From Escherichia phage dw-ec, in the sequence record OL739525.1: a DNA stretch of 64,000 bases; one strand, given 5' to 3'. Shown piece after piece: positions 4,124-25,104 of the stretch. A program made the translations under genes and the position numbers. How positions within the stretch are numbered: position 1 is the first letter of the stretch; the number at the start of each line of letters is the position of its first letter. Under the pieces are notes generated by a model. That model had not been told where the DNA came from, ran no database searches, and saw only the letters and a program-made list of their open reading frames with translations.

Positions 4124-6364
4124 TCACATCTTGCAAGCTTCACAACCACCATCAGAATCTTCTTGTGCTAAAGAGTCTGCTGATTTTGTTCTACTATTAA
4201 GGTAATACAACGACTTACCACCCAGTCTAGCAAAATTCAGAATAAACTGCATCTCAGCTTTCACTGATAAACGTCCACCTACCAATTTAGAATAATCTAG
4301 CCAAGAATCACAAGAAATTCCTTGGTCCGTAAACTTGGTAAAGATACCATACATTTCTGCAAGGTCTTTAGCCGGAGTGTCCCAGGCGGACTGGTAGAAC
4401 ATTTTCAGTTTTTCGTAGTCTGGAACAATAAATAATACACTACCTTTCTGACTTTGTTTATACATAATAGTATCACGAACAGGATACAGAGAGTTAGTAG
4501 TATTGCTTACCAAACTGCTGGACTCATTAGGTGCGATAGCAGCCAAGACACTGTTACGGATACCACCTTGTTCAATGATTTCAGCACGTAAGCCTTCCCA
4601 GTCCATTTTAAGATCAAAATTACCGATACTATCTACTGTTTTAGCATAAGTGTCAATTGGTAGCCAACCTTGAGGCCATTTGGTCTTATCAATCCATTCC
4701 GCATTACCTTTTTCCTTAGCCAGACGCAGAGAGGCTTTTGCCAACCAGAAGTAATGACGTTCTGCAAGTTCATGCATTAATTTTTTAGCGTAAGCATCTG
4801 AATAATTTACAAAATTACTTGCCAAGTAATGCGCTAAGTTTGTAATGCCTACACCAATAGATCTACGTGCTTTAGCAGTTATTTCGTTATGTTTAAATGG
4901 ATAATCCATTGTTTCAATAACGTTGTCAATTGTCAATACAGTGTAGTATGCAACATCCTCATATTCTTCAGGTAAGACACGACCAGCAACAATAGAAGAT
5001 AAGAAGCATAAAGCCAACTCTTGATCTTCTGTATTCTCACCAGTAAAGAGATCCGGCATACTGTGGAAAGCTTTAGTTGGTAAGAAGATCTCTTGACACA
5101 GGTTTGATTGATACACCGTATCCAGGAAAGGTGTATGGTTGTTAACGTTGTCAGCAAAGAACATGTAAATACGTCCTGTTTCTGCACGTTGAACAATAAT
5201 CTCTGTCAGAAGATCACGAGCCTTAACAAATTTTTTCTTAATGCGACGACGGCTTACTTTGTCATAAACTGCATCAAACTCTTCTTCACTTTTATACAAA
5301 GCTTCATAAAGTTCAGGAGCATCATCACAACTAACTAACATCCAATCTTCGTTTTTTGCTGCTCGACGCAAGAATGAACGGTTAACAACAATAGAATAAT
5401 CCAGTTTGTCTACTCGTTTATCTATAGGTGTTGTTGGATTCTTCAGTCGAATCAGATCGTCGAAGTCTGGTTCAAGTATGGTAAAGGTAACTGTAGCACT
5501 ACCTCCACGGCTTGCTTGCTTCGAAGCTCCAACACTATCTTCCATCCATTTCAGATACGGAAGAAGACCACCATGAATAATACGATTATTCTTAACACCT
5601 TGACCTGTGGCACGAGTTTGAAGATTAACACCAATACCTGCGTTATTCAACGTATACTCATGAGCTAAGTAATTAGCAATGGCTAAAGACTCTGCTGTGT
5701 CATCTGCACGGAATAAACAACAAGACGCACTTCCTTTGATTGGAGTTCGTAGAGTTGTCAGATATGGTGATGGCAGATTAATCTTAAGATCGCTAACATA
5801 AGTATACAGTTTTTTAATATCTTCTATACGGCGTTCTTTTGGTTGGATCTCCATAACCTTCATTGCGATACCAATGAAAAGAAACTGTGGAGACTCATGC
5901 ACCACATCGTTTACTGCATCTCGGATAAGATATTTATCCACCATCTGACGTAAAACAGAATAGCCATAAGTTAGATTTTTATTATGCTTTACAATCTTAC
6001 CAATTTCTTTGATCTCTTCATCAGTATAATCCATTTTAGCCCAATGTCCACGTTCTACCATATCATGATAAAAGGTATTCAGTGAAGGGATACTGTGGTA
6101 TCCCCCATGAGCCTGTTTGTAAATCATACCCAGAAGAAGTCTTCCTGCCATATCACTGTAAGCTTGTGTTTTCTTGTCAATACACGCTGCAATCATTGCT
6201 TTATGCAGATCACGTGTAGACACACCGTCATAACACCGCTTCACAGCTTCTAATTCAATTTCAGACCAGTTTAGTTTACCTGCTGCAAATTCAGACCACT
6301 TGCGAAGTTTTTCTGGATTAAACTCCTCTGTCTTACCGTTAGATTTAGTTACAAAACGAATCAA
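4124..6364 (-). CDS. nrdA: ribonucleotide reductase class Ia large subunit
   Basis: 746 aa; recognised as NrdA by overall sequence character and size, with C-terminal Cys residues. Confidence 0.92.
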   Translation of the reverse strand: MIRFVTKSNGKTEEFNPEKLRKWSEFAAGKLNWSEIELEAVKRCYDGVSTRDLHKAMIAACIDKKTQAYSDMAGRLLLGMIYKQAHGGYHSIPSLNTFYHDMVERGHWAKMDYTDEEIKEIGKIVKHNKNLTYGYSVLRQMVDKYLIRDAVNDVVHESPQFLFIGIAMKVMEIQPKERRIEDIKKLYTYVSDLKINLPSPYLTTLRTPIKGSASCCLFRADDTAESLAIANYLAHEYTLNNAGIGVNLQTRATGQGVKNNRIIHGGLLPYLKWMEDSVGASKQASRGGSATVTFTILEPDFDDLIRLKNPTTPIDKRVDKLDYSIVVNRSFLRRAAKNEDWMLVSCDDAPELYEALYKSEEEFDAVYDKVSRRRIKKKFVKARDLLTEIIVQRAETGRIYMFFADNVNNHTPFLDTVYQSNLCQEIFLPTKAFHSMPDLFTGENTEDQELALCFLSSIVAGRVLPEEYEDVAYYTVLTIDNVIETMDYPFKHNEITAKARRSIGVGITNLAHYLASNFVNYSDAYAKKLMHELAERHYFWLAKASLRLAKEKGNAEWIDKTKWPQGWLPIDTYAKTVDSIGNFDLKMDWEGLRAEIIEQGGIRNSVLAAIAPNESSSLVSNTTNSLYPVRDTIMYKQSQKGSVLFIVPDYEKLKMFYQSAWDTPAKDLAEMYGIFTKFTDQGISCDSWLDYSKLVGGRLSVKAEMQFILNFARLGGKSLYYLNSRTKSADSLAQEDSDGGCEACKM

Positions 6365-16536: not shown

Positions 16537-16941
16537 TTATTGAAGTTTAAGTGAACCACGAAGACGTTTCTCTTGCTGATCACGAATATATTGTGGAACC
16601 TCGTGAATTGAATCATTACCGTGCCTATTTTCAACAACTAAAGAGATAACTTGATAACCAAACTCTTCAGCAAGAGTTAGATAAGGTTTAAGTTCTTTCT
16701 CTGTGGTTGAAGTGTTAGAAACAATAATCTTGTTAAGATTAGATGCCATAGCATCACGAACAATACTCTGACACCATGCGTGTGCTTTACCTACATTTTC
16801 TGGCTTCCAATCGTAAACACCACTTTCTGTATAATGATATTGATCTGCCTCACAGATAGGCCAATAACCTTCAGAAATAATTTCTGCTACCGTAGATTTA
16901 CCAGCACCTGAAACGCCACGTAAAATGATAAGTTGTTTCAT
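16537..16941 (-). CDS. P-loop polynucleotide 5-prime kinase (kinase domain only)
   Basis: GVSGAGKST Walker A near N-terminus; 134 aa; adjacent to RNA ligase. Confidence 0.6.
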   Translation of the reverse strand: MKQLIILRGVSGAGKSTVAEIISEGYWPICEADQYHYTESGVYDWKPENVGKAHAWCQSIVRDAMASNLNKIIVSNTSTTEKELKPYLTLAEEFGYQVISLVVENRHGNDSIHEVPQYIRDQQEKRLRGSLKLQ

Positions 16942-17874
16942 TTATCCTCCAAAGAAGTTTTCGATTTTTTCACGTCGCTCTTGCTGATTTAAAGCAGCCC
17001 ATTGAGTCTTCGTAAAATTATTTCGAATCCATTCTAACAAAGCGTAATATTCTTCGTCAACAATTTGTTTGGCATTTTTTGGATTATCCCAAATCAGATC
17101 CCACTTTTTATCTCCACCACGCATAAGAAACTTCTTAGTAAGATAGTGTGGTGATTTAATTTTTAAAAGTAAGTTGAACGGATAGTTTGTTTCACGAACT
17201 ACAAACCCTTCGTGTTTACAATGTTTAGACATTTCAACAACATCTGAAAACTTAACCATTGGATGAACTTCAGGACGCTTAAATTTGGTGACAGAAGCAA
17301 TTCCATCAAGAGCACCTTCAGGTAACATAAAACTTGTCCCATCAGGATTTTGAATTCTGGCACCAATTAAGTATGCACCTGGTTCTTCTTCGACAATATG
17401 TGGATCAGAAGGATCACAGATTTCAAACAGGAAAGTTGCTTTTGCACTCTCTGCCCATTTGATGAAATGTTCTATGTCATCGCACTCTGAAACAATATGA
17501 TTCTTTGCAATACTTGCAAAATCTGATTCAAGGCTTCCTGTTGTCGATACAATAAGTTGACCTTTATATACACCTACAGAGGCCATAAAACCATTTACTT
17601 TACGAACCACATCTACAAGTTCATCCGCTGGTAGATCTGTGCCATTCTCAAAACGATTAAAAATCTTAGTGAAAGGCCAAATAACAACATTGTCATCAGC
17701 ATCAACAACGATTCCGCGACATTCTAGAAGACGAGAATCAATGCTCCATAAATTATCCCAGAAAACTTTGTTCTTATACTTAAGAACAGATAGACCAGAA
17801 TACTCTCCTTCTTTATATGTTTTCTTATGAACTAAACCTTTTTCAACCAAATCGTCGCAATTAAATTTAGTCAC
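16942..17874 (-). CDS. RNA ligase (Rnl family nucleotidyltransferase)
   Basis: VVRKVNGFMASVGVY contains the KxNG lysine-adenylate motif; 310 aa. Confidence 0.65.
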   Translation of the reverse strand: MTKFNCDDLVEKGLVHKKTYKEGEYSGLSVLKYKNKVFWDNLWSIDSRLLECRGIVVDADDNVVIWPFTKIFNRFENGTDLPADELVDVVRKVNGFMASVGVYKGQLIVSTTGSLESDFASIAKNHIVSECDDIEHFIKWAESAKATFLFEICDPSDPHIVEEEPGAYLIGARIQNPDGTSFMLPEGALDGIASVTKFKRPEVHPMVKFSDVVEMSKHCKHEGFVVRETNYPFNLLLKIKSPHYLTKKFLMRGGDKKWDLIWDNPKNAKQIVDEEYYALLEWIRNNFTKTQWAALNQQERREKIENFFGG

Positions 17875-17875
17875 A

Positions 17876-18427
17876 TTACTCTCCTTTGATTATTTTGTGA
17901 TGGTCTACAGTCACGATATCTCGTTTACTCATCATAGAAATTATCTCATCAAAATGCAAGATTTTTCCGTGTGCATCCCAACCCACATCTAACATTTTAC
18001 CATAAGCTTCATCAGGGAAAGATCCGTGGGAATGCCCGTGTAGCATGATTGATCCACGACCTTGTTTATTCCAGGAGGCAATAGGGTAATGACTTAAGAC
18101 GAAGAACAGCTTCTGGTATTTCACTTCGTCATAATACACCACTTCGCCATACTCTGCAAGCACTTCTCGGTGCTTGCTGTAATCATGATTCCCAACAAGA
18201 TAAGTGATATCCCCTTGCAGACGGGAAGCAATCTTACGGGTATCTTCTTCAGTCCCGAAACAGAAGTCGCCCAAATGCCACATCTTAACACCAGGGGTAG
18301 TAGCACATTTGTTCCATGCTTCGATCAAGGCTTCTGTCATGTGGTCCATATCTTCCCACGGACGATATTCAGGAGCAAACTCTCGAATGCGTTTATGCAT
18401 AAAATGCAAATCGCTTGTAATAAACAT
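17876..18427 (-). CDS. calcineurin-like metallophosphoesterase
   Basis: SDLHFMH, LGDFCFG, GNHDY, HGHSHG metallophosphatase motifs; 183 aa. Confidence 0.7.
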   Translation of the reverse strand: MFITSDLHFMHKRIREFAPEYRPWEDMDHMTEALIEAWNKCATTPGVKMWHLGDFCFGTEEDTRKIASRLQGDITYLVGNHDYSKHREVLAEYGEVVYYDEVKYQKLFFVLSHYPIASWNKQGRGSIMLHGHSHGSFPDEAYGKMLDVGWDAHGKILHFDEIISMMSKRDIVTVDHHKIIKGE

Positions 18428-18783
18428 TAGTATAATCCCTCGCTAAATAATTCATGGTCGTGACCATTACGCTCATGGTCGATCTGGTCAGCATTTTCCG
18501 CGATGATGTAAGCATCCGCACGACTCCACCAATTGTAATACTGATCGATAAAGCCTTGATTATCTGGTGTGCACAAAGTTTTGTTGATTACACCTGCTTC
18601 TTTCAACACGTTTAACTGTGCATATAGTACAGGATTTGCATGTCGAACACAAGGAATAATTAACTCTTCGCCATTATTCAAAATATACTTATTTGCAGCA
18701 CAGACAATAACACGTTGCGCATAATGACCCTCACCCATCCAGGTAAGAGGTTGGTAACAAATGTTGTTTTCAATACCACTCAT
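18427..18783 (-). CDS. hypothetical protein (118 aa)
   Basis: ORF track; start coupled to downstream metallophosphatase gene. Confidence 0.5.
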   Translation of the reverse strand: MSGIENNICYQPLTWMGEGHYAQRVIVCAANKYILNNGEELIIPCVRHANPVLYAQLNVLKEAGVINKTLCTPDNQGFIDQYYNWWSRADAYIIAENADQIDHERNGHDHELFSEGLY

Positions 18784-18789
18784 TGTTTC

Positions 18790-18933
18790 CTAATCCTCCT
18801 CTCTTAAATTATCCTCGAAAAAACTAGTATCTGGAAGTAAAAGATCATTGCTTGTGTCGGGCGAATCCTCTTCTTCTCTGTAGATAAAGTAACCTTCGTC
18901 CTCTTCTTGTTCCGACCAAACCGAATGATGCAT
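18790..18933 (-). CDS. small acidic hypothetical protein (about 47 aa, not in ORF track)
   Basis: ATG after AGGAGA RBS; fills the 18784-18942 gap. Confidence 0.3.
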   Translation of the reverse strand: MHHSVWSEQEEDEGYFIYREEEDSPDTSNDLLLPDTSFFEDNLREED

Positions 18934-18942
18934 GTTCTCTCC

Positions 18943-19299
18943 TTAGTAGTGCACACGAATCATTTTAATACCATAACGCTGCATGGATTCTTTTGCAAGC
19001 ATGAATTTATCCCCAGCGGCGGGATTAGAAGTATGCACGAAAATGGTAGGTGAACCAAAGCAAGGTTTACCAAACGCCAGAAGTTCTTCCAGGTGCAGGA
19101 AAACATCATACCCATCTTGGTCTGACTCCATACCTAAATCGTTGTCAAAATGCCACTCGTCTACAAAACGATAACCCTTCTGCACCTCATTCATGTAACG
19201 AGAGGCAAGAAGTTCCTGTGAGGTTTTAAACCAGATTGCATCTGGACAACCATAATCTTTTGGATCACGTAAATCATCAAGCCAAATAATAGTACCCAT
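18943..19299 (-). CDS. hypothetical protein with receiver-domain-like signature
   Basis: IIWLDD ... FDNDLG ... VHTSN ... AGDK spacing resembles CheY-like DD/D/T/K landmarks; 118 aa. Confidence 0.4.
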   Translation of the reverse strand: MGTIIWLDDLRDPKDYGCPDAIWFKTSQELLASRYMNEVQKGYRFVDEWHFDNDLGMESDQDGYDVFLHLEELLAFGKPCFGSPTIFVHTSNPAAGDKFMLAKESMQRYGIKMIRVHY

Positions 19300-23042: not shown

Positions 23043-23117
23043 GGCCCTGTAGCTCAATGGGAGAGCTGTCGGCTCATAACCGATAGGTAGCTGGATCGAA
23101 ACCAGCCAGGGCCACCA
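23043..23117 (+). tRNA. tRNA with CAT anticodon (Met or lysidine-type Ile2)
   Basis: Cloverleaf folds by hand: GGCCCTG/CAGGGCC acceptor, anticodon loop CTCATAA, CCA encoded. Confidence 0.75.
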
Positions 23118-23119
23118 AC

Positions 23120-23194
23120 GTCTTTATGGTGTAATGGATAGCACAGGAGTCTTCTAAACTCTTAGTCAAGGTTCGATTCCTTGTAAAGACACCA
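23120..23194 (+). tRNA. tRNA-Arg (TCT)
   Basis: 7-bp acceptor, anticodon loop CTTCTAA, T-arm CAAGG-TTCGATT-CCTTG, CCA encoded. Confidence 0.8.
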
Positions 23195-23390
23195 GAACAT
23201 TTTAACATGAATTAGCTCAAGTGATTTGAACCCACTACTGATCATGGTGGCAGAGAATGAGGCAAGTATGTCAGACATTATAAACAAAGGCCACGGTTAT
23301 ATTAGAAGACATAAATGCTCGAAGAGCACCGTTCGTTGAGAACGGGGGTTGGTGGAGTCACCATTCATGGTAAAATGTTTTAAAAAACTA

Positions 23391-23420
23391 TTGACAACTA
23401 ACATTATTTTATGTTAGATT
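23391..23420 (+). promoter_or_regulatory. sigma70-like promoter P2 inside tRNA array (CTATTGACAA ... TGtTAGATT)
   Basis: TTGACA, 18-bp spacer, extended -10; CTAACAT/ATGTTAG inverted repeat. Confidence 0.5.
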
Positions 23421-23428
23421 ATAAGTAT

Positions 23429-23519
23429 GGAAGGGCAAATCGATGTGGCGACGAAAACGGTCTTGAAAACCGCCGAGCTTGAAAGAGCCTTGGGAGTTCG
23501 ACTCTCCCTCCTTCCGCCA
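23429..23519 (+). tRNA. tRNA-Ser (TGA), class II
   Basis: Anticodon loop CTTGAAA, long variable arm, T-arm GGGAG-TTCGACT-CTCCC, CCA encoded. Confidence 0.8.
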
Positions 23520-23524
23520 GATTA

Positions 23525-23610
23525 GGTAGATTGGTGAAATGGTAGCCACAACAGTTTGCTAAACTGTAGTCGGAAACGGCGTGTAGGTTCGAGTCCTACA
23601 TCTACCGCCA
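23525..23610 (+). tRNA. tRNA-Ser (GCT), class II
   Basis: GGTAGAT/ATCTACC acceptor, anticodon loop TTGCTAA, long variable arm, CCA encoded. Confidence 0.8.
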
Positions 23611-23740
23611 AGTTCTTTTTAATATAGCTTACTTTAATAGAGTAAACTTTCGGCAGATGGCCTCCACCATCTTACCGATAACTCATAGTTAGTGGTGTGA
23701 ACACTGGCTATTTTAAAAAGAATTTAAATATTAGTATTTA

Positions 23741-23828
23741 GGTGAGTTAATTCCGTAGGGGTAGCGGGGCAGACTGTAAATCTGTTATCATTGCGATTCG
23801 GGTGGTTCGACTCCATCACTCACCACCA
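23741..23828 (+). tRNA. tRNA-Tyr (GTA), class II
   Basis: GGTGAGT/ACTCACC acceptor, anticodon loop CTGTAAA, long variable arm, CCA encoded. Confidence 0.8.
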
Positions 23829-23834
23829 AATTAA

Positions 23835-23920
23835 GATGAGTTGGCTGAATGGTTTAAGCGGCGGACTGTTAATCCGTGTTCGAAAGAACGATATAGGTTC
23901 AAATCCTATACTCATCGCCA
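23835..23920 (+). tRNA. class II tRNA with apparent GTT (Asn-type) anticodon; isotype uncertain
   Basis: Good acceptor and T-arm, 15-nt variable arm, anticodon stem GCGGA/TCCGT with loop CTGTTAA; class II architecture with an Asn anticodon is non-canonical. Confidence 0.55.
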
Positions 23921-23927
23921 GAATTAT

Positions 23928-24004
23928 GGACTTGTAGAGTTAAGGTAAACCCCCAGTCGCCAAGAGGCTTCTGGAATTGCAGGTATCGAATCCTGCCGAG
24001 TCCC
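23928..24004 (+). pseudogene. degenerate tRNA-like element
   Basis: Acceptor pairing GGACTTG/CGAGTCC and T-arm-like GCAGG-TATCGAAT-CCTGC (8-nt loop), but no canonical anticodon arm could be folded. Confidence 0.35.
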
Positions 24005-24010
24005 AGTTTT

Positions 24011-24085
24011 GCTCCTATAGTATAATGGCTATTACAACGGTTTTGTAATCCGTGGATCTCTGTTCGATTCAGAGTGGGAGCACCA
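24011..24085 (+). tRNA. tRNA-Thr (TGT)
   Basis: GCTCCTA/TGGGAGC acceptor, anticodon loop TTTGTAA (one non-WC pair closing the stem), CCA encoded. Confidence 0.7.
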
Positions 24086-24358
24086 ACATAACATTAAGAG
24101 CACTGTGATTGATCGTCGTATCCTGTGCACAAGGTCTGCTCGAAAGACAGTGTTCTTAGTATTGTGTTGATCACACAAAGAGTTACCTGAAACTTGACCG
24201 GAGTAGGGTTGGATGGGGCAAAAGAAGAAGCGGCTCTCCCATCGACAGCAACGAAGAATAATATTTGACTTTGGTTTTGTATTATTTTAAGTTAGCTTAC
24301 CGAACGTAGGGCTAGTCACCCAATGGGATACTCGTCACTGTCCCACTCAATAAAACTA

Positions 24359-24388
24359 TTGACAACCAATAGTAAAATGTAGTATAGT
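24359..24388 (+). promoter_or_regulatory. sigma70-like promoter P3 inside tRNA array (CTATTGACAA-18-TATAGT)
   Basis: Consensus hexamers about 10 nt upstream of tRNA-Gly. Confidence 0.5.
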
Positions 24389-24399
24389 AAAGATGTAGG

Positions 24400-24473
24400 G
24401 CGTTCTTGGTGTAGCGGTAGCATTCCGTCCTTCCAAGTCGGCGGCACGAGTTCGATCCTCGTAGAACGCTCCA
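24400..24473 (+). tRNA. tRNA-Gly (TCC)
   Basis: Anticodon loop CTTCCAA, T-arm ACGAG-TTCGATC-CTCGT, CCA encoded. Confidence 0.75.
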
Positions 24474-24571
24474 AATTATTTAATAAAGGGTTGCCAGAAA
24501 ACTTTCTCTTTTACTCATGGTTTTCTCCTTCTCTCACACCTCTTCTGGTTGCCCTTCATTAAATGATTTAT

Positions 24572-24647
24572 TGGTTTGTAGTGTAGTCCGGTAGCACACG
24601 ACACTTTGACTGTCGTAGGTTTGGTTCAAATCCAGACAGACCAGCCA
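24572..24647 (+). tRNA. tRNA-Gln (TTG)
   Basis: TGGTTTG/CAGACCA acceptor, anticodon stem CGACA/TGTCG with loop CTTTGAC, CCA encoded. Confidence 0.75.
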
Positions 24648-24652
24648 TATAA

Positions 24653-24729
24653 CGGAATTTAGCTCAGTTTGGTAGAGCATACGCTTTGGGAGCGTAGGGT
24701 CGCAGGTTCGAATCCTGCAATTCCGACCA
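24653..24729 (+). tRNA. tRNA-Pro (TGG)
   Basis: CGGAATT/AATTCCG acceptor, anticodon loop TTTGGGA, T-arm GCAGG-TTCGAAT-CCTGC, CCA encoded. Confidence 0.85.
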
Positions 24730-24735
24730 ATCAAA

Positions 24736-24809
24736 TGTTTCGTAGTTCAATGGTAGAACCCACGACTGATAATCGTGAGACACAAGTTCGATTCTTGTCG
24801 AAACAACCA
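24736..24809 (+). tRNA. tRNA-Ile (GAT)
   Basis: TGTTTCG/CGAAACA acceptor, anticodon stem CACGA/TCGTG with loop CTGATAA, CCA encoded. Confidence 0.8.
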
Positions 24810-24811
24810 GT

Positions 24812-24881
24812 TTCCCGTTAGACTTACAGGATAAGAGTTCCACAACTTATTGTGATGCTGGTTCGAATCCAGCACGGGATA
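24812..24881 (+). pseudogene. tRNA-like element with aberrant anticodon arm
   Basis: Canonical T-arm GCTGG-TTCGAAT-CCAGC and acceptor (1-72 mismatch), but anticodon region folds only as a 4-bp stem with 6-nt loop ACTTAT; 70 nt, no CCA. Confidence 0.4.
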
Positions 24882-24887
24882 CATAAT

Positions 24888-24966
24888 AGCGGGATAGAGG
24901 AGTCTGGTCGTCCTCGCCAGTTTCATATGCTGGAGATCATCGGTTCAAATCCGATTCCCGCCTCCA
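24888..24966 (+). tRNA. tRNA-Met (CAT), second CAT-anticodon tRNA
   Basis: Anticodon stem CCAGT/GCTGG with loop TTCATAT, T-arm ATCGG-TTCAAAT-CCGAT, CCA encoded; A1-C72 mismatch at top of acceptor. Confidence 0.65.
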
Positions 24967-25081: not shown

Positions 25082-25104
25082 AGCCTCCTTATTGGAGGCT
25101 TTTT
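25082..25104 (+). terminator. intrinsic terminator closing the tRNA array
   Basis: AGCCTCC-loop-GGAGGCT hairpin followed by TTTTT. Confidence 0.6.

Follow-up and report, generated by a model that had tools for sequence, protein, structure and literature searches.

The window analysed here, a 64,000-nucleotide (nt) stretch of Escherichia phage dw-ec (sequence record OL739525.1), contains at 23835-23920 (+) an 86-nt transfer RNA (tRNA) gene, GATGAGTTGGCTGAATGGTTTAAGCGGCGGACTGTTAATCCGTGTTCGAAAGAACGATATAGGTTCAAATCCTATACTCATCGCCA, that encodes a tRNA-Asn with class II architecture, i.e. with a long variable arm. Textbooks limit bacterial long variable arms to the tRNAs for Leu, Ser, Tyr and Sec. 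The existence of the gene is known, as it is annotated as tRNA-Asn in many GenBank records. Its class II architecture, however, I found neither noted nor explained in the searchable literature, and no description of a long-arm tRNA-Asn was found in the searchable full texts, the older T5 and T4-like literature lying outside that scope. The best explanation of the observations as a whole, at a probability of about 0.65, is that this is a functional phage tRNA-Asn that would be charged by the host, its arm possibly being a shield against nucleases.

ARAGORN identifies 23835-23920 as a tRNA-Asn of 86 nt with the anticodon gtt, GTT starting at position 34. The gene belongs to the tRNA family of Rfam, RF00005, with a score of 62.0 bits (gathering score 29, E = 3e-12); the covariance alignment handles its 12-13 surplus bases as an insertion in the variable region. 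The minimum-energy structure obtained with RNAfold is the cloverleaf including a GUUC-GAAA-GAAC hairpin. The folding z-score is just -1.7, which is weak evidence by itself, as energy alone is not discriminating. A preliminary description, made from the letters alone, had listed an acceptor stem, a T arm, an anticodon arm with a stem of 5 base pairs (bp) and a 7-nt loop, and a 15-nt variable arm, and it is correct on these elements.

The acceptor stem of 7 bp (23835-23841 paired with 23910-23916) and the 5-bp stem of the T arm (23893-23909) form a standard 7/5 acceptor/T branch, and the D arm has 3 bp and a G13/A22 mismatch. The anticodon arm GCGGA-CTGTTAA-TCCGT occupies 23861-23877, with GTT at 23868-23870 in its 7-nt loop, and is followed by the variable region GTTCGAAAGAACGAT (23878-23892), 15 nt that comprise a 4-bp stem GTTC/GAAC, a GAAA tetraloop and three unpaired bases (GAT) on the 3' side. 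The discriminator base G73 is located at 23917, and the CCA end, read from the sequence, is encoded at 23918-23920. If class II is taken as a variable region of at least 10 nt with a conserved stem-loop, and class I as a variable loop of 4-5 nt, as in all cellular tRNA-Asn, the window tRNA with its 15 nt belongs to class II and not to class I. The variable regions of the class I tRNA-Asn in the dataset described below are 4-6 nt long.

Amino-acid identity

Positions 26-43 of the window tRNA, that is G26 at 23860 and the whole anticodon arm, are identical to those of E. coli asnT (TCCTCTGTAGTTCAGTCGGTAGAACGGCGGACTGTTAATCCGTATGTCACTGGTTCGAGTCCAGTCAGAGGAGCCA; the references asnT and asnV were taken from NC_000913.3). 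The E. coli tRNA-Asn(GUU) genes asnT/U/V/W further have G73, the 7/5 branch and the GGTTCRA T loop in common with the window tRNA, and their D arm is also found in some phage relatives. They differ in having a 5-nt variable loop, ATGTC, instead of a 15-nt hairpin arm, in their acceptor stem (UCCUCUG, against GAUGAGU in the window) and in their D arm, which has 4 bp where the window tRNA has 3 bp and a G/A mismatch. In E. coli, the identity set of asparaginyl-tRNA synthetase (AsnRS) consists of the three anticodon bases G34, U35 and U36 together with G73 (PMC9976931), and this set is complete in the window tRNA. Charging with asparagine by the host AsnRS is likely, because positions 26-43 are identical to asnT.

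For a comparison of classes, 2,111 unique tRNAs were extracted from the fetched loci. The long-arm tRNA(GUU) (n = 108 unique) have U-A at 1-72 in 62% and G-C in 31%, C-G at 2-71 in 43%, C-G at 3-70 in 38%, and G73 in 93% (100/108). This acceptor profile is nearly equal to that of class I tRNA-Asn (n = 105; U-A at 1-72 in 70%, C-G at 2-71 in 50% and at 3-70 in 50%, G73 in 86%), and it is unlike the profiles of the remaining isotypes. These are tRNA-Ser from the same loci (n = 131; G-C at 1-72 in 88%, G-C at 2-71 in 93%, A-U at 3-70 in 84%, G73 in 62%), tRNA-Tyr (n = 73; G-C at 1-72 in 85%, at 2-71 in 68% and at 3-70 in 64%, A73 in 68/73) and tRNA-Leu with a long arm (n = 102; G-C at 1-72 in 52%, C-G at 2-71 in 73%, C-G at 3-70 in 52%, A73 in 101/102).

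The acceptor pairs of the window tRNA are G1-C72, A2-U71 and U3-A70. In bacterial tRNA-Ser, G1-C72 and G2-C71 are conserved and A3-U70 is common, and the window tRNA has the first of these pairs but not the full signature, nor does it have the 5-7 bp arm with one unpaired base on either side; tRNA-Ser is thus rejected by acceptor stem and arm. The presence of G73 would suit a tRNA-Ser, but it is common to tRNA-Asn and therefore does not discriminate. A tRNA-Tyr or tRNA-Leu would need A73, and the former GUA as well, whereas the window tRNA has G73, which is an antideterminant for the tyrosyl- and leucyl-tRNA synthetases (TyrRS, LeuRS), and GUU. A suppressor or stop-codon recoding tRNA does not fit either, as the anticodon GTT reads AAC/AAU and no stop codon.

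Judged by these features, the window tRNA is a tRNA-Asn and not a shifted Ser or Tyr tRNA. Among the readings offered in the preliminary description, that of an unusual tRNA-Asn agrees with the host-identical positions 26-43, with G73 and with the Asn-type acceptor stems of the class, while a recoding or mischarging tRNA finds no support. Its remark that GTT is one substitution away from Tyr (GTA) or Ser (GCT) is misleading as a hint, as positions 26-43 are those of E. coli tRNA-Asn, position 73 is a G, and the 2-71 and 3-70 pairs and the arm are not those of a tRNA-Ser.

What determines the charging of nematode nev-tRNAs is their class II body. Like the window tRNA, these nev-tRNAs (Hamashima et al., via PMC5389517) and the allo-tRNAs (PMC5389517) combine a long arm with an anticodon other than that of Leu, Ser or Tyr. 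The allo-tRNAs differ from the window tRNA in their 8/4 or 9/3 acceptor/T branches and their Ser or Ala identity. Assignment to the allo-tRNAs (Mukai et al. 2017), defined by the 8/4 or 9/3 branch, is rejected, given the 7 bp + 5 bp of the window branch.

Conservation and distribution

The comparison with orthologues in related phages, which the preliminary description had suggested along with the covariance scoring given above, bears out a tRNA-Asn with a covarying arm. The 86-nt query matches 293 phage records, 37 of them with at least 99% identity, and every annotated match among the 60 listed records is a tRNA-Asn. The gene is 100% identical across many independently sequenced phAPEC8-like genomes, and a close variant in ESCO13 differs solely at two unpaired positions. 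Long-arm GTT homologues are present in the Stephanstirmvirinae (phi92, Justusliebigvirus), the Vequintavirinae (Klebsiella phage KpS8), the Straboviridae (Serratia phage CHI14) and the Demerecviridae (Providencia PR1, Salmonella S113, Escherichia IrmaTschudi), and hence span at least four phage groups. The stems of the variable arm differ among these homologues, yet stay paired: GTTC/GAAC, GAAC/GTTC, GTC/GAC, ATCC/GGAT and GAGC/GCTC.

Covariation was counted on the cloverleaf pairs of an alignment of 24 sequences with E. coli asnT as the outgroup. Standard pairs occupy 99.1% of the pair cells of the 24 homologues, far more than chance would give: shuffling the columns leaves 70%, and sliding the partners 35-48%. 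Changes on both sides are observed in 17 of the 24 cloverleaf pairs, including 4/4 pairs of the variable stem, of which 97.7% of the cells are paired. In the IMG/VR rows of this alignment positions 29-41 are invariant by construction, being part of the search pattern, and CCA was padded onto four rows, in columns outside all pairs. According to these patterns of change, the window tRNA-Asn is structurally intact, purifying selection acts on the gene, and the variable-arm hairpin is maintained by selection.

Nothing but the unusual architecture speaks for a pseudogene, a duplicate in decay or an artefact of assembly, and the probability of such a reading is practically nil. It is refuted by the identical or near-identical gene in dozens of independently sequenced phages, with all stems intact and with homologues that differ by compensatory changes or at unpaired positions. 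The decaying copy that was considered in the preliminary description is contradicted by the 100% identity in many phage genomes and by diverged homologues that retain their stems by compensatory change. A sequencing error behind GTT disagrees with the presence of the identical gene in many independent genomes and with the two unpaired positions of ESCO13.

In IMG/VR, the pattern GGACTGTTAATCC-N16-26-GGTTCRA matched at least 120 contigs. ARAGORN called a tRNA-Asn(gtt) in 122 of 125 candidates, which amount to 88 unique sequences whose variable regions measure 11-20 nt, 15 being the commonest length. With a pattern that admits both classes (N6-26), the 120 viral loci listed fall into 106 of class I (gap 9-11) and 14 of class II, with none between, and long-arm genes thus make up about 12% of the viral tRNA-Asn genes with this anticodon arm. 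Of the 120 class II loci, 110 have three or more tRNAs; among class I loci the share is about half.

Cellular genomes were scanned with the N16-26 pattern, using one genome per species for 185,579 bacterial and archaeal species. Only 37 loci matched, and ARAGORN finds a long tRNA-Asn in just 17 of them, 11 of which lie in arrays of 7-36 tRNAs, e.g. in Micromonospora. In the other 20 no long tRNA is called, and the one that I inspected, L136 from a member of the Saprospiraceae, consists of tandem 5' fragments of tRNA-Asn. Among 5,426 complete E. coli genomes there is no match to the long-arm pattern, and therefore the window tRNA-Asn is not a prophage or host gene. The long-arm tRNA-Asn class is restricted to viruses and mobile tRNA arrays, and it is almost exclusively viral.

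Four of the cellular loci (L128, L129, L133 and L157, from Micromonospora and Verrucosispora) are chromosomal arrays with 23-36 tRNA genes within 8 kilobases (kb), each including a long-arm tRNA-Asn of 89-90 nt; they are candidates for mobile-element or phage-derived tRNA arrays. The Saprospiraceae locus, from a metagenome-assembled genome, has at 5470-5930 three tandem 128-nt repeats upstream of an intact class I tRNA-Asn. Each repeat opens with the 5' two-thirds of a tRNA-Asn gene; these are false positives of the search pattern, resembling either the scars of repeated integration or a duplication in tandem. In the pooled IMG/VR and phage loci (L001-L270) the class I/II rule is broken both ways: the long variable arm is missing in 85 of 187 unique phage tRNA-Leu, and among the genes for Cys, Ile(UAU), Thr(UGU), Trp and Met a minority reach 82-96 nt, whether through introns or through arms.

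The tRNA block and its neighbours

The Asn gene is located in a block of at least 12 tRNA or tRNA-like genes (23043-24966). The window belongs to a phAPEC8-like phage: a 701-nt stretch around the Asn gene is 99.1-99.6% identical to phages of this type (Phapecoctavirus, Stephanstirmvirinae), e.g. Mt1B1_P17 and anhysbys. A class II tRNA-Tyr(GUA) with A73 (23741-23828, +), scored with 39 bits by Rfam and missed by ARAGORN, ends 6 nt upstream of the Asn gene; it has an odd D arm, and relatives label it tRNA-Tyr or 'tRNA-Pseudo/OTHER'. Directly downstream of the Asn gene lies a tRNA-like element (23926-24005, +) with local alignments to T5 rna3 and to a phi92 spacer. The tRNA finders gave no call for this element, and no CCA is encoded in it; it is conserved in phi92 and homologous to T5 'rna3', which is annotated as a putative tRNA-like RNA and itself stands directly after the T5 tRNA-Asn. 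Further downstream is a tRNA-Thr(UGU) (24011-24085, +) that is called by ARAGORN and scores 59.5 bits with Rfam. It reads U36-A-A-U-C-C41, i.e. it has C41. The host tRNA-Thr(UGU) carries A41, and the substitution A41C strongly lowers the cleavage of tRNA-Lys by AriB (PMC12409363).

A tRNA-Ser(UGA)-like gene at 23429-23518 (+) has an unusual D region and is missed by ARAGORN; its best Rfam match is tRNA-Sec with 35.7 bits, below the gathering score, and its phi92 counterpart is annotated as a tRNA-Ser pseudogene. The stretch at 24810-24887 (+) is tRNA-like in its good T arm, GCTGGTTCGAATCCAGC, and in an acceptor-like pairing of 6 bp, with no call by ARAGORN or Rfam; it is dissimilar to the phi92 tRNA-Leu(TAG) at the matching place. 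A tRNA-Lys(UUU) is absent at 23611-23740 (+), where there is just a 10-nt remnant-like match to the Lys gene of phi92. In phi92, KpS8 and CHI14 a tRNA-Lys(UUU) adjoins the long-arm tRNA-Asn.

A consensus scan found a promoter-like site with TTGACA, an 18-nt spacer and a TG-extended -10 at 23391-23420 (+), upstream of the run of tRNA genes that includes the Asn gene. It has the motif ACTATTGACAA in common with the TTGACA promoter-like sites at ~22804 and ~24359. As the number of promoter-like sites in the window does not exceed the shuffle expectation, the site at 23391-23420 is merely suggestive. A terminator-like hairpin is present at 25082, downstream of the tRNA block, as are the terminase, portal and protease genes.

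About 5 kb upstream of the Asn gene and on the opposite strand, the window contains an RNA-repair-like module (16537-19299, -). It consists of an AAA_33 P-loop kinase (16537-16941, 4e-10), an Rnl1-family RNA ligase (16942-17874; PF09511, 4e-15), a weak match to a calcineurin-type metallophosphoesterase that is below the Pfam cut-off (17876-18427) and a cyclic-phosphate-processing receiver domain (18943-19299; PF20274, 1e-13). The module resembles the Pnk/Rnl1 system of T4, which repairs tRNAs cut by anticodon nucleases.

Possible roles and origin of the extra arm

In the explanation that I favour, the Asn gene would be transcribed with the phage tRNA block and the transcript processed to an 86-nt tRNA with its encoded CCA. 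The host AsnRS would, most likely, charge this tRNA via G34-U35-U36 and G73, and the charged tRNA would read AAC/AAU codons during infection. Asn codons amount to 57.8 per 1000 in the 57 open reading frames of the window, which suggests that the phage has a high demand for Asn decoding; in E. coli the figure is ~39 per 1000. From every cellular tRNA-Asn this tRNA differs in a single respect, a hairpin of 3-4 bp with a GNRA loop in place of the 5-nt variable loop. With an anticodon arm identical to that of the host, it would still suit AsnRS, the ribosome and the enzymes of queuosine and t6A modification, and the extra arm could act as a structural shield against tRNA-targeting nucleases.

Two defence systems are relevant to this last step. 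In PARIS, AriB cuts the host tRNAs for Lys (UUU), Thr (UGU) and Asn (GUU) at 40|41, and tRNA variants of T5 rescue infection (PMC12409363); AriB is modelled as a dimer that touches the anticodon stem as well as U16-U17 in the D-loop. Retron-Eco7 cuts the host tRNA-Tyr in the variable loop, and counter-defence by a phage tRNA-Tyr needs a longer variable loop (PMC12673091). The window tRNA retains the exact AriB site of the host tRNA-Asn, U36-A-A-U-C|C41, and its extra helix at positions 44-48 is located between the two modelled contact points of AriB. Because the site is intact and a helix has been added between the modelled contacts, I lean, by a narrow margin, towards a shield rather than an arm without adaptive role. 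That the arm helps tRNA-Asn to escape host tRNA nucleases is nevertheless a tentative proposal. The conversion from class I to class II might possibly be a phage counter-defence strategy and a second escape route beside mutation of the cleavage site; if true, this would account for a form that many phages have and hardly any cell.

The tRNA-Tyr of phage SP15, as studied against Retron-Eco7 PtuAB (PMC12673091), is like the window tRNA a phage tRNA with a longer variable region. It belonged to class II already and had its arm lengthened, whereas in the window a class I isotype has turned class II. The tRNA-Asn of T5 is likewise a phage copy of a target of defence nucleases and occupies the same place in its cluster, just upstream of the rna3-like element. 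However, it is a class I tRNA of 78 nt that escapes, as far as is known, via substitutions in its anticodon stem (GCATC/GTTGA), whereas the window tRNA retains the host stem and adds an arm. Anti-defence of the T5 type, with substitutions at the cleavage site or around it, is therefore rejected for the window tRNA, as its anticodon arm is fully host-identical.

The RNA-repair module in the window and the nearby tRNA-Thr(UGU) give a context for the shield that is not decisive, and the same applies to phages with two Asn genes, in which the anticodon stem of the class I partner is usually divergent. In IMG/VR, a long-arm tRNA-Asn with the canonical stem occurs together with a class I tRNA-Asn in L011, L044, L046, L048, L058, L068, L073, L078 and L118, the anticodon stems of the class I partners being e.g. 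GATGA/TCATC or GAAAG/CTTTA, which gives two structurally distinct Asn isodecoders per contig.

Several observations weigh against a protective arm. The T5 tRNA-Asn that was tested against PARIS is the ordinary 78-nt class I form with a mutated anticodon stem, and that of Bas34 (SelmaRatti) is also class I, with 77 nt, so that the published rescue experiments are uninformative on the extra arm; IrmaTschudi, which has the long form, is Bas28 and is not among the phages named in the text of the PARIS paper (PMC12409363). As the AriB site is intact in the window tRNA, any resistance would have to arise elsewhere in the molecule. The 85 of 187 tRNA-Leu without a long arm and the occasional long Cys, Ile, Thr and Trp tRNAs fit a relaxed constraint equally well, and a long arm with G73 belongs to the identity set of seryl-tRNA synthetase (SerRS). 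Finally, the co-occurrence with AriB targets is flat, the shares of class II and class I loci being 50% and 32% for tRNA-Lys(UUU) and 37% and 43% for tRNA-Thr(UGU), with locus lengths that differ between the two.

Alternatively, the tRNA may serve codon supply only, the arm being a tolerated insertion without adaptive role, to which AsnRS, EF-Tu and the ribosome are indifferent. This is a possible, though not a probable, account, and so is its corollary that pairing is needed merely to avoid misfolding, which would be sufficient for the covariation. AsnRS identity resides in nothing but the anticodon and G73, so that the variable arm should tolerate an insertion; Asn codons are frequent in the window, phage tRNA sets hold the armless tRNA-Leu and sporadic long tRNAs mentioned above, and the PARIS target set is not clearly enriched near class II genes. 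However, the arm is retained in very divergent phages, within narrow limits of geometry and with a preference for a GAAA loop, and the length distribution is bimodal without intermediates. The frequency of the form in cellular genomes is also lower than in viral contigs by a factor of hundreds at the least. A scan of the scaffold with a free anticodon yielded Leu, Tyr and Ser tRNAs of the usual kind, along with a few odd ones for Lys, Gln, Met and Cys; GTT was present in 11 of the 120 loci listed, and apart from Leu, Ser and Tyr no further isotype had more than two matches. Among the matches listed there was no counterpart of the Asn family with GTA or GCT.

The geometry of the arm, expressed as the unpaired bases on the (5', 3') sides of its stem, bears on its origin and on a role of SerRS. 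The long-arm tRNA-Asn (n = 104) have (0,3), (1,4) or (1,3) with 3-4 bp, and a GAAA loop in 50/104; (0,3) with 3-4 bp is the commonest type, and the window arm is (0,3) with 4 bp. In the phage loci tRNA-Ser is mostly (1,1) with 5-7 bp, tRNA-Tyr is (1,3) with 3-4 bp and tRNA-Leu is (1,2) with mostly 3-4 bp, and the arms of E. coli serU and serV have 6-7 bp. With 4 bp and 0 and 3 unpaired bases, the window arm is not of the Ser type, i.e. 5-7 bp and one unpaired base per side. The window tRNA has the stem-loop of the bacterial class II tRNAs (Tyr, Leu, Ser), its size and flanks being nearest to tRNA-Tyr; it differs from Tyr and Leu in GUU and in G73, where these have A73.

A mistranslating tRNA, which SerRS would serylate upon reading the long arm and G73, so that AAC/AAU would partly be read as Ser, is rather improbable. 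Serine identity does reside mainly in the long variable arm; G73 contributes to it, the anticodon does not. G1-C72 is present in the window tRNA, and together with G2-C71 in the T5-like and T4-like members, and the arm of the phage's own tRNA-Ser(GCU) has merely 4 bp. However, the window tRNA has A2-U71 and U3-A70 instead of G2-C71 and A3-U70, and in its class U1-A72 reaches 62% and C2-G71, in tRNA-Leu an antideterminant against SerRS, 43%. The arms of the class, (0,3), (1,4) or (1,3) with 3-4 bp, are not the (1,1) arms with 5-7 bp of tRNA-Ser, and the AsnRS identity set is complete. Mistranslation of this kind would also harm the phage's own proteome, with its ~58 Asn codons per 1000. Even less probable is a decoy that is chiefly non-translational and binds host tRNases uncut as a competitive inhibitor. 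This possibility was raised by the PARIS authors for overexpressed viral tRNAs (PMC12409363), and a host-identical anticodon arm would be good bait, but the elements for charging and decoding (CCA, G73, T loop and anticodon loop) are all conserved.

With respect to origin rather than function, the gene could descend from a class II tRNA (Tyr, Ser or Leu) by the anticodon change GUA to GUU and a change of A73 to G, which I consider unlikely. The arm geometry is nearest to that of tRNA-Tyr, (1,3) with 3-4 bp, a tRNA-Tyr is located 6 nt upstream, and the D arm of the window tRNA, with 3 bp and the G13/A22 mismatch, is class II-like. When the D and T arms of the 108 long-arm Asn tRNAs were compared with ~2,000 other phage tRNAs, tRNA-Ser bodies were the top single nearest neighbour (17), followed by class I tRNA-Asn (13) and many others, and as a whole the result is heterogeneous. 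However, the anticodon stem is that of the host tRNA-Asn and not the Tyr stem GCAGA/TCTGC, and the acceptor stems are of the Asn type. Moreover, members from Erwinia and Klebsiella phages retain the D arm of E. coli tRNA-Asn (GTTC..GGTAGAAC; GTTC-loop-GAAC) beside the extra arm, which suggests that, at least in this lineage, the arm was inserted into a true tRNA-Asn.

The long-arm tRNA-Asn thus represents a fifth isotype with a long arm, a large and almost entirely viral class that is maintained by selection and that databases label simply as 'tRNA-Asn'. In annotation, its genes are a useful marker for tRNA arrays of viruses or mobile elements. A neutral arm would still show that AsnRS, EF-Tu and the ribosome care little about the variable region, and charging by SerRS would make the tRNA a natural device for mistranslation. 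Should the arm prove to be a protection against defence nucleases, it would constitute a new escape of phages from tRNA-targeting immunity, and it could provide a simple handle for engineering nuclease-resistant tRNAs or phages.

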